Shown here: positions 18,281 to 19,717 of the stretch, piece by piece
Numbering within the stretch: the first letter of the stretch is position 1
How the letters are laid out: every line of letters starts with the position of its first letter
Origin: Candidatus Paracaedimonas acanthamoebae
GTDB lineage: Bacteria > Pseudomonadota > Alphaproteobacteria > Caedimonadales > Caedimonadaceae
Direction of reading: 5' to 3'
Assembly: GCA_000743035.1 (NCBI GenBank)
Contig: CP008936.1
Span: 450,001-482,000, forward strand
Length of the DNA: 32,000 nt
Position numbers and translations under genes: made by a program
Notes under the pieces: generated by a model
What the model was told of the DNA's origin: nothing
The model's database searches: none
The model's input: the letters and a program-made list of their open reading frames with translations, nothing else

Positions 18281-19717
18281 ATGGGAATAAATGCTATTAG
18301 TTTAACATATGACAACCTAGAGCCTATGTATAAAGAGGAAATTAAAGGTATTGCTCTTGCCTCTCTGAAGGATCAACTCCAAACATGGAAATCTATATTC
18401 CATACTCTTATGAATCACGAGGCGAGCATAAGAAATGAACTCAAACCCGAACGTATTCCATTGGTACGCTTACCTGCATATGTTGCGGAGGAGTATGAAA
18501 CAAAACTTAAACAATTTTATATATTTGTCAGACAATATTTGGAAACAGATGAGCAAAGTAAGTTATGGTTATCATTTTTTGAAGAAGATATGGCTGCTGT
18601 GAAGAATTTGTCCATGACACATGAGAGCTTTATATTCTCTACTTTTCGTCTCAGCATTTTAATGGATAGAAGATCAATTCTAGATAATACAATTGTAGAA
18701 CCAGAACTCAAAGAAATTATAACGAGTGGGAATTGGAATAGTATTCAATTTTATCATGACACTTTTGCGCCGAGAGTATTTCGTTTTCCAGACCCACCTA
18801 TGTCCCTTGTTGCTCCCATTTTCTTACAAGAAGGCGAAATTCCCATCCATAATTTCCTAGAAGCATTTTTATTGGAGGATTTTCCTTATGGCCTTGCAGC
18901 TATTCCTCTTGATCCAACGTATGTGCATGGGGGAACGATGGCTGCGCCTGGGTTATTTTATTCTCATGATTTATTACATTGGCCTGTATTTGTAAGATTA
19001 GTAAATAGACATCCAGATCGTTGGGTAAGACTTCGAAGGTCTTTGAGAGAGCTATATATCAGAAATTCTTCTCAAGACCCAGTATTGGATTATTTTATTT
19101 TTATGATACTTCATGAGGGTGCTCTTAATGATGAATATGGTCAAGGGAAGGAGACTAGAGATCTGGAGCAAGACATCCAATTTCTCATAGAGCAAATTTA
19201 TGAAGAGATGAAAAATAGATTTGATTATCACCGAAGTTTCTTGAAGAATTTCTTTCTAGCAAAGCTTCAAAACATACTCTCAAAACCATTTAAGTTATAT
19301 GCAGTTGATGAAATTGATGAACAACGCTTAGATGTAATTGATTATGAAAGAGTTACGCCTAACTGTTACTCTGCAAGAGCAGCTCTGATGGCACAAAATA
19401 AAAAAGTTATGGAAATAAATTGTACAATAACAGTAAAACCTACGGAAGATATCTTTTTTAGCTTATGCTCTATTAAGGACATAAGTGTATCCTTCATTGC
19501 TCCTGAAATGGTTGAACAAAAAGATGATATTTTACAGAAGTTGCTTGGTGAGGTTCTTATTAAGAATGCTCGCTATTTCTTTTATATTGATGTAAAAGAC
19601 CATTTGAAAGTTCTCCGTAAATTAACTGATTTTCCTTCTGCTCAAGATGCATGTCCAGCTTTTCTTCCCTGGGTTAGAGAGCAAGTTAAAAGGTTGATTT
19701 ATGAATATACCTCATAA
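18281..19717 (+). CDS. Hypothetical protein of unrecognised family (478 aa). It is a paralogue of 28973..30400.
   Basis: The ORF is long and uninterrupted, with its ATG at 18281 preceded by GGGGGCAAGG. It aligns end to end with ORF 28973..30400, which shows purifying selection. I recognise no family motif. Confidence 0.8.
   Translation: MGINAISLTYDNLEPMYKEEIKGIALASLKDQLQTWKSIFHTLMNHEASIRNELKPERIPLVRLPAYVAEEYETKLKQFYIFVRQYLETDEQSKLWLSFFEEDMAAVKNLSMTHESFIFSTFRLSILMDRRSILDNTIVEPELKEIITSGNWNSIQFYHDTFAPRVFRFPDPPMSLVAPIFLQEGEIPIHNFLEAFLLEDFPYGLAAIPLDPTYVHGGTMAAPGLFYSHDLLHWPVFVRLVNRHPDRWVRLRRSLRELYIRNSSQDPVLDYFIFMILHEGALNDEYGQGKETRDLEQDIQFLIEQIYEEMKNRFDYHRSFLKNFFLAKLQNILSKPFKLYAVDEIDEQRLDVIDYERVTPNCYSARAALMAQNKKVMEINCTITVKPTEDIFFSLCSIKDISVSFIAPEMVEQKDDILQKLLGEVLIKNARYFFYIDVKDHLKVLRKLTDFPSAQDACPAFLPWVREQVKRLIYEYTS

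Follow-up and report, generated by a model that had tools for sequence, protein, structure and literature searches.

X, an orphan protein family in non-ribosomal peptide synthetase islands of an Acanthamoeba endosymbiont and its relatives: a candidate metal-dependent helper enzyme

Introduction

The described systems that come closest to the locus reported here are of several kinds. Gluzincin zinc metallopeptidases (HExxH...E) include enzymes that process or inactivate non-ribosomal peptides. The PhhA/PhhB type couples a hydroxylase to a pterin-4a-carbinolamine dehydratase (PCD), the HD-domain phosphohydrolases are represented by AcpH, and the non-ribosomal peptide synthetases (NRPS) have small helpers, namely MbtH-like proteins, type II thioesterases (TEII) and Sfp-type 4'-phosphopantetheinyl transferases (PPTases). 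To our knowledge, obligate intracellular symbionts of amoebae or ciliates are not known to make non-ribosomal peptides, and we know of no NRPS helper proteins specific to such symbionts. A literature search returned nothing on NRPS of Paracaedimonas or the Holosporales, nor on PCD in NRPS clusters.

Here we describe a window of 32,000 nucleotides, the whole stretch of DNA that was analyzed, from Candidatus Paracaedimonas acanthamoebae, an endosymbiont of Acanthamoeba belonging to the Holosporales (contig CP008936.1, positions 450,001 to 482,000). The window carries two NRPS assembly lines and two copies, X1 and X2, of a gene for an orphan two-domain protein that we call X. Its close relatives, in a few related uncultured bacteria, are found in NRPS islands, where X is accompanied by a conserved set of exporter and helper genes. 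X is probably a new helper enzyme.

Results

X1 and X2 are old paralogues

X1 and X2 were originally predicted to be paralogues that are collinear from end to end, with a central block of about 70% identity, no signal peptide or transmembrane segment, and no larger duplication around them. All of this was borne out. In a BLASTP alignment, 260 of 450 positions are identical (58%; 77% positives, gaps 0, E = 0), and the shared sequence blocks quoted in the prediction are all found in it. Identity reaches 70.4% at amino acids (aa) 113-352 and is 42% in the N-terminal and 44% in the C-terminal part. The top Kyte-Doolittle means over 19 residues are 1.21 for X1 and 1.35 for X2, with no signal peptide or transmembrane segment in either. 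When the window was compared with itself by BLASTN, the X genes matched at 18629-19351 and 29303-30025 (70.6%) and at 19557-19709 and 30231-30383 (69.9%). Besides X, the two regions have in common short A-domain core motifs alone and their flanks otherwise differ, which rules out a larger segmental duplication. The placement of the genes was likewise as described: an ABC exporter gene lies between the TE-ended NRPS and X1, and X2 starts at 28973, after a gap of 148 nt from the NRPS stop at 28824, on the same strand.

The longest reading of the X1 open reading frame (ORF) opens at a TTG codon (18269). The ATG at 18281 agrees with the start of a 94%-identical orthologue (MMGINAIS...) and with the 478-aa GenBank protein AIL12639.1. 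X2 is exactly GenBank AIL12644.1, and X1 falls into the protein cluster that contains AIL12639.1; both entries are labelled 'hypothetical protein' of Candidatus Paracaedimonas acanthamoebae. Comparison of X1 with the 94%-identical orthologue, which is metagenomic, gave a ratio of nonsynonymous to synonymous substitution rates (dN/dS) of 0.20. X1 is under purifying selection, and both copies are genuine genes. X1 and X2 have reached saturation at synonymous sites (dS 2.6, dN 0.34), hence the duplication is old. X2 is also no closer to X1 (56%) than are the relatives from other organisms (52-62%). Scans for promoters and terminators near both copies found sites no more often than in shuffled sequence.

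X has a fixed place in a conserved NRPS super-cluster

Among 5.77 billion clustered proteins, X has six close relatives (55-94% identical), which together with X1 and X2 are referred to as the close clade. The expected association with NRPS genes holds for this clade, since X lies in an NRPS island in every relative with visible context. In the window the order is NRPS line 1 - ABC exporter - X1 - PPTase - PCD - Vut_1 - DUF2608 - NRPS line 2 - X2 - insertion sequence (IS) elements (Table 1). The conserved unit reads ABC exporter - (APH kinase) - X - PPTase - (MbtH) - PCD - Vut_1 - DUF2608 - NRPS. Between the ABC exporter and the beginning of NRPS line 2, the genes of the window follow the order seen in two relatives' islands, L012 and L001. 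Thus, what had been taken for two separate loci is one conserved super-cluster, in which the exporter, the PPTase and the PCD-Vut_1-DUF2608 block accompany X. X2 is an extra copy at the IS-flanked end of the super-cluster. The IS elements beside X2 may account for its lack of exporter and PPTase neighbours.

The NRPS genes around this unit differ between islands. In L002 the order is NRPS(..TE) - ABC - APH(-) - X, and the NRPS is orthologous to line 1 of the window (48-55% identical). In L001 and L012 the upstream part reads NRPS(..MT-PCP-C) - ABC - APH(-) - X - PPTase - (MbtH) and the downstream part PCD - (Vut_1 - DUF2608) - NRPS(A-PCP-C-PCP) - TEII - MT - CmlA-like - cupin. Here the NRPS are unrelated to those of the window (25-29%), yet the ABC exporters are 57% and the X proteins 57-59% identical. 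The X neighbourhood is therefore kept in at least three NRPS contexts, namely line 1 together with L002, L001 together with L012, and line 2. Across three islands the exporters share 55-57% identity, on a par with X. A PPTase gene lies directly 3' of X in the window, L009, L001, L010/L011 and L012; between the window and L001/L010, however, identity of the PPTases is a mere 25%. An APH-family kinase gene, divergent from X, is located between the exporter and X in L001 (4980-6251, minus strand) and L002 (8632-9954, minus strand). These kinases share 34% identity, and an APH gene is missing from the window.

The original prediction had also joined TE and X into one duplicated unit. The TE motifs that it quoted are indeed present in both TE domains, but the unit was rejected: identity between lines 1 and 2 is 32% for the TE domains and 37% for the terminal modules, values common among unrelated NRPS modules, versus 58% for X1 and X2. 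Moreover, the NRPS upstream of X in L001 ends in MT-PCP-C, without a TE.

Table 1. Genes of the X super-cluster in the window
Feature	Coordinates	Strand	Remarks
NRPS line 1	247..16272	+	..A-[PCP]-C-A(Cys)-PCP-C/E-C, then A-PCP-Cy-A(Cys-like)-[PCP]-C-A(Gly-like)-PCP-TE; bracketed PCPs frameshifted
ABC exporter	16241..18094	+	fused TMD-NBD; co-inherited with X; 55-57% identity to the L001 and L002 exporters
X1	18281..19717	+	478 aa, orphan two-domain protein; AIL12639.1, IM40_02440
Sfp-type 4'-phosphopantetheinyl transferase	19769..20518	+	directly 3' of X1
Pterin-4a-carbinolamine dehydratase (PCD)	20629..20901	+	90 aa, PF01329 91.9 bits
Vut_1/YhhQ-type transporter	20901..21560	+	syntenic with L012, 62% identical
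DUF2608 (HAD-like)	21649..22485	+	syntenic with L012, 34% identical
NRPS line 2	22876..28824	+	A-PCP-C-A-PCP-TE; both A domains identical, beta-Ala-like code
X2	28973..30400	+	475 aa, X1 paralogue; AIL12644.1, IM40_02470
IS3-type integrase-core ORF	30599..31474	-	directly after X2, island end
IS110-type transposase fragment	31523..31942	-	after X2, island end

The wider family is small and mostly exported

When 1.84 billion representatives were searched in full with HMMER, 12 credible distant relatives were added, with 23-30% identity over the matched stretches. One further sequence from the representative search (P0010) was a low-complexity repeat artefact and was dropped from the family. The named hosts are Candidatus Neptunichlamydia vexilliferae (Parachlamydiales), Candidatus Bealeia paramacronuclearis (Holosporales) and an alphaproteobacterial metagenome-assembled genome; the remaining distant relatives are encoded on metagenomic contigs. 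The phyletic spread of the family is very narrow. Profile searches of the 5.8-billion-protein index with two alignments (A2 and A3) returned the input sequences alone, a limit of the word index. Scans of genome contigs and metagenome contigs gave no relative, and they likewise did not recover the source genome itself. A tblastn search of 72,556 plasmids gave no match.

A signal-peptide-like hydrophobic N-terminus is present in 8 of the 11 full-length distant relatives and in no member of the close clade. The genomic context of five distant relatives was examined, and in each case housekeeping or envelope genes were found, with no NRPS and no PCD. The link to NRPS is thus a property of the close clade, and the family as a whole is not NRPS-specific, a point on which the original prediction was not supported.

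Domain layout and conserved residues

An AlphaFold2 model built from a 17-sequence alignment reached a mean predicted local distance difference test score (pLDDT) of 83.4 and a predicted template modelling score (pTM) of 0.83, compared with a pLDDT of 74 for an earlier model from seven sequences. The model predicts an N-terminal domain (approximately aa 25-335) that is mostly helical, with a strand-helix-strand element at 177-209, and a C-terminal alpha+beta domain (approximately aa 348-478) with a four-stranded antiparallel sheet and helices. The linker between them (aa 337-347) has a pLDDT below 50 and lies inside the acidic stretch VDEIDEQRLDV. In X1 this stretch covers aa 342-352 (19304-19336); D343-V352 is invariant in all members of the close clade, and in X2 the first residue of the stretch is A. 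Located in a low-confidence linker, the stretch could be a docking or interaction motif. In L010/L011, which come from two metagenome assemblies, an in-frame TAA replaces a conserved Tyr codon of the X gene at approximately 1016-1021, precisely in the interdomain linker. This position of the stop codon supports the existence of two separable domains. L012 encodes an intact 494-aa X from the same 90% cluster as L010/L011.

In the 17-sequence alignment, whose members outside the close clade are 15-22% identical to X1, residues G185, D230, H278 and E279 do not vary at all, and conservation is at least 90% at H216, H229, H233, F237 and F274. After removal of two sequences (P0019 and P0004), the glycine, H216, H229, D230, H233, F274, H278 and E279 are all invariant in the core alignment. 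H229 and H233 are spaced i/i+4 on a predicted helix (223-241), and H278-E279 close a second one (267-279). Such an arrangement is often seen in metal sites, and we take the four His residues, together with the Asp and the Glu, to form a putative one.

X as a possible metal-dependent hydrolase

Tentatively, we favour the possibility that X is a metal-dependent enzyme, with hydrolysis as its most likely reaction and with the peptide product or an assembly-line intermediate as its substrate. Metal binding, hydrolytic chemistry and substrate are all points that we infer. X of the close clade is a cytoplasmic protein that combines a helical His/Asp/Glu domain, an acidic linker and a C-terminal alpha+beta domain. 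It has a fixed place in a portable 'service cassette', shared by NRPS islands of protist-associated bacteria, and would process the peptide before export or protect the producer. Among metal-dependent chemistries a hydrolase is favoured because exported family members would have no access to reductants or cofactors. The signal-peptide-like N-termini of most distant relatives suit a hydrolase better than a cofactor-dependent redox enzyme.

Several points weigh against this reading. In the databases searched, X shows no likeness in sequence or fold to any hydrolase or other protein. Independent NRPS-linked X loci number only about six, and their synteny may in part come from shared descent of one mobile island and not from functional coupling. 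The island may also be decaying in some hosts, as line 1 has frameshifted PCP domains and X is interrupted in L010/L011. One family member (P0019) is devoid of H216, H229 and H233. Finally, the metal site is a candidate judged from conservation, and the closeness of its six residues in space is presumed.

X matches no family or fold in the databases searched

The original prediction that X could not be placed in any family was upheld in every search. X1 and X2 have no match in Pfam-A at E <= 0.01 or in NCBIfam at E <= 1. When X1, X2 and 15 relatives were compared with Pfam-A, NCBIfam, PADLOC and PHROGs, all were unmatched, and no family recurred even at E <= 10. A phmmer search and two profile searches of all PDB sequences returned nothing credible. 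Foldseek searches of PDB with both models gave a best E value of 0.39, and a search of BFVD gave no significant match. No model of known NRPS domains or helpers (C, A, PCP, TE, MbtH, PPTase) matches X, while the neighbouring genes are readily matched. The family is new and so, as far as these comparisons go (HHpred and AlphaFold-DB were not among them), is the fold. Neither Rfam nor tRNA scans gave a match in the window.

The weak matches from the PDB search all fall into the C-terminal domain and are to MlaC/Ttg2D-like, SMP, StARkin and NTF2/VirB8-like folds (E 0.4-3). These are small alpha+beta folds that bind ligands or lipids, and they raise the question whether X is an enzyme at all. A binding, immunity or chaperone protein could hold a peptide or lipidic ligand for the exporter, or shield a cellular target, with the conserved His, Asp and Glu residues in a structural or ligand-binding role. 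Co-inheritance of X and the ABC exporter at equal divergence would fit such a role, as would the failure of X to match any catalytic family. However, the structural matches are not significant and X2 has no adjoining exporter. In addition, the invariance of four His, one Asp and one Glu at an overall identity of about 20% is more typical of catalysis or metal binding. We therefore regard a non-enzymatic X as doubtful.

Pterin, phosphate and mobile-island readings of the neighbourhood

The PCD gene of the window, which is absent from the original prediction, was uncovered by tblastn with the L012 proteins. Its motif (E-x3-HHP-x5-W-x9-H-x8-D) is intact, and its stop codon overlaps the start of Vut_1 (TAATG). 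The gene is located two genes 3' of X in the window, L001 and L012, and no hydroxylase of the Biopterin_H type or otherwise pterin-dependent is visible in any of the islands. X itself might then be the partner of the dehydratase, as a non-haem-iron oxygenase with a 2-His-1-carboxylate site (H229/H233/E279) that makes or modifies an NRPS building block. In this case it would be a functional analogue, on another fold, of the aromatic amino acid hydroxylases (AAAH). The retention of a PCD with an intact catalytic motif near X in three islands, its translational coupling to Vut_1 and the missing Biopterin_H-type hydroxylase speak for this possibility. So does a similarity in motif, since human PAH (sequence verified against PDB 1DMW/1PAH) has HELLGHVPLF, about 40 residues and VEFG where X has HDLLHWPVF, about 45 residues and LHEG. 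Nevertheless, when the family profile was compared with the catalytic domain of PAH by hhalign, the probability was 0.4% and the motifs were not aligned, and no AAAH is among the best 50 (E to about 3.8) of 243 Foldseek matches at E <= 10, although PDB contains more than 40 AAAH chains. The spacing is H-x3-H in X and H-x4-H in AAAH. The visible A domains are Cys-, Gly- and beta-Ala-like, none of them aromatic, and the distant relatives are exported, with no PCD nearby. X as a divergent AAAH was rejected, as neither hhalign nor Foldseek supports it, and the oxygenase is kept as a functional analogue that we consider unlikely. Bolder still, and about as unlikely, is the idea that X founds a new metalloenzyme fold whose NRPS-linked clade is the missing pterin-using or otherwise new oxygenase, or a hydrolase, served by PCD, Vut_1 and DUF2608 as a cofactor block.

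The PPTase that immediately follows X in five loci could point to phosphate chemistry. As an HD-like phosphohydrolase or phosphodiesterase, X would reverse the PPTase reaction in the manner of AcpH, or remove the phosphate added by the APH kinase in a prodrug or resistance cycle. The conserved pattern H...HD..H...H(E) agrees with this, as does the APH-family kinase gene divergent from X in L001 and L002. Against it, none of the 17 members is hit by the Pfam models HD (PF01966), ACP_PD (PF04336) or related ones at thresholds up to E <= 10, and no HD-domain structure is among the Foldseek matches listed. The window is devoid of an APH gene and X2 of an adjoining PPTase. Furthermore, the PPTases are only distantly related between the window and L001/L010, so they were not co-inherited like the ABC exporter. 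We judge a phosphohydrolase to be improbable.

That X is a symbiont-specific envelope or host-interaction protein, unrelated to the peptide and riding on a mobile island, is improbable too: the wider family is confined to lineages of protist endosymbionts (Holosporales, Parachlamydiales) or metagenomic contigs, is mostly exported and there has no NRPS link, and X2 adjoins IS elements, but the close clade has lost the signal peptide, the position of X between exporter and PPTase is fixed while the surrounding NRPS genes vary, and X2 follows an NRPS stop at short distance on the same strand.

The two NRPS assembly lines

The A-domain codes were extracted against a GrsA-PheA reference, itself verified on PDB 1AMU. 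Line 1 has codes for Cys, one unassigned, Cys-like and Gly-like. In NRPS2 (7253..12256), the Cys-like A domain is immediately preceded by a Cy-type domain (DSLTTDAWS), an arrangement suggesting that the first product contains a thiazoline. Both A domains of line 2 have IDWVTSLADK as their code. Its Asp is displaced by one position, and we take the code to resemble those for beta-alanine or beta-amino acids. The two lines are thus chemically different, as predicted.

The frameshifted PCP domains of line 1 are due to a 1-nt shift at 1311-1320 and 12247-12256, which splits A-PCP-C into overlapping ORFs. At both sites (1289-1320 and 12225-12256) there is a G4 for an expected G5 within the phosphopantetheine-site motif FFQIGGHSL, and the orthologue in L002 reads as a single continuous frame across the site. 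The shifts are either homopolymer sequencing or assembly errors, or real pseudogenization. The two junctions are identical because they lie in direct repeats of 100% identity, 655-3341 and 11591-14277 (2687 bp). A second pair, 22915-24252 and 26194-27531 (1338 bp), is likewise 100% identical. These repeats lie inside the NRPS genes and comprise whole C-A and A-domain segments. They point either to a very recent event, by duplication of modules or by gene conversion, or to an assembly that was collapsed or duplicated here.

Discussion

X is a compact target that lends itself to experiments: it has about 480 aa, its structural model is confident, six residues are candidates for the active site, and its genetic context is defined. 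If X is an enzyme, the steps that tailor or process non-ribosomal peptides, or confer resistance to them, would gain a new fold and perhaps a new reaction. It would also provide a function for a family otherwise seen as exported 'hypothetical proteins' in Holosporales and Chlamydiota. Should X indeed found a new metalloenzyme fold, this would mean a tailoring chemistry so far unseen for non-ribosomal peptides, from obligate intracellular symbionts of protists. If X is not linked to the peptide, it would still be a marker of a gene island common to protist-associated bacteria.

Comparison with known systems

With regard to the gluzincins, X likewise has two His four residues apart on a predicted helix with an adjoining acidic residue, and a downstream His-Glu pair, approximately 45 residues on, that closes a later helix. 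The order of predicted elements before the motif helix (strand - helix - strand) is compatible, and exported and cytoplasmic members occur within one family in both cases. However, the motif of X is HDxxH (HDLLH, Asp invariant) and not HExxH, no peptidase model of Pfam or NCBIfam matches any member, and no zincin is among the Foldseek matches listed. The resemblance is one of motif and topology, taken from the sequence and the predicted elements.

Like the PhhA/PhhB pair, the X cassette includes a PCD gene, and X has a His...His...Glu pattern (H229-x3-H233...H278-E279) that is similar to that of the hydroxylase in spacing and flanking residues. It differs by the lack of a Biopterin_H match, the low hhalign probability, the lack of an AAAH among the Foldseek matches listed, the H-x3-H spacing and the lack of visible aromatic A domains. 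Akin to the HD-domain phosphohydrolases, X contains H...HD...H in a helical domain, and it adjoins a PPTase gene and, in two islands, a kinase gene. In contrast to AcpH and its kin, it has no HD or ACP_PD match and, at about 480 aa, an extra C-terminal alpha+beta domain. The small NRPS helpers are unrelated to X in sequence and size, and exist as separate genes in its islands, the PPTase in the window and MbtH and TEII in L012/L001. Nevertheless, X shares their pattern of occurrence, in that it recurs across chemically different assembly lines together with genes for export and priming.

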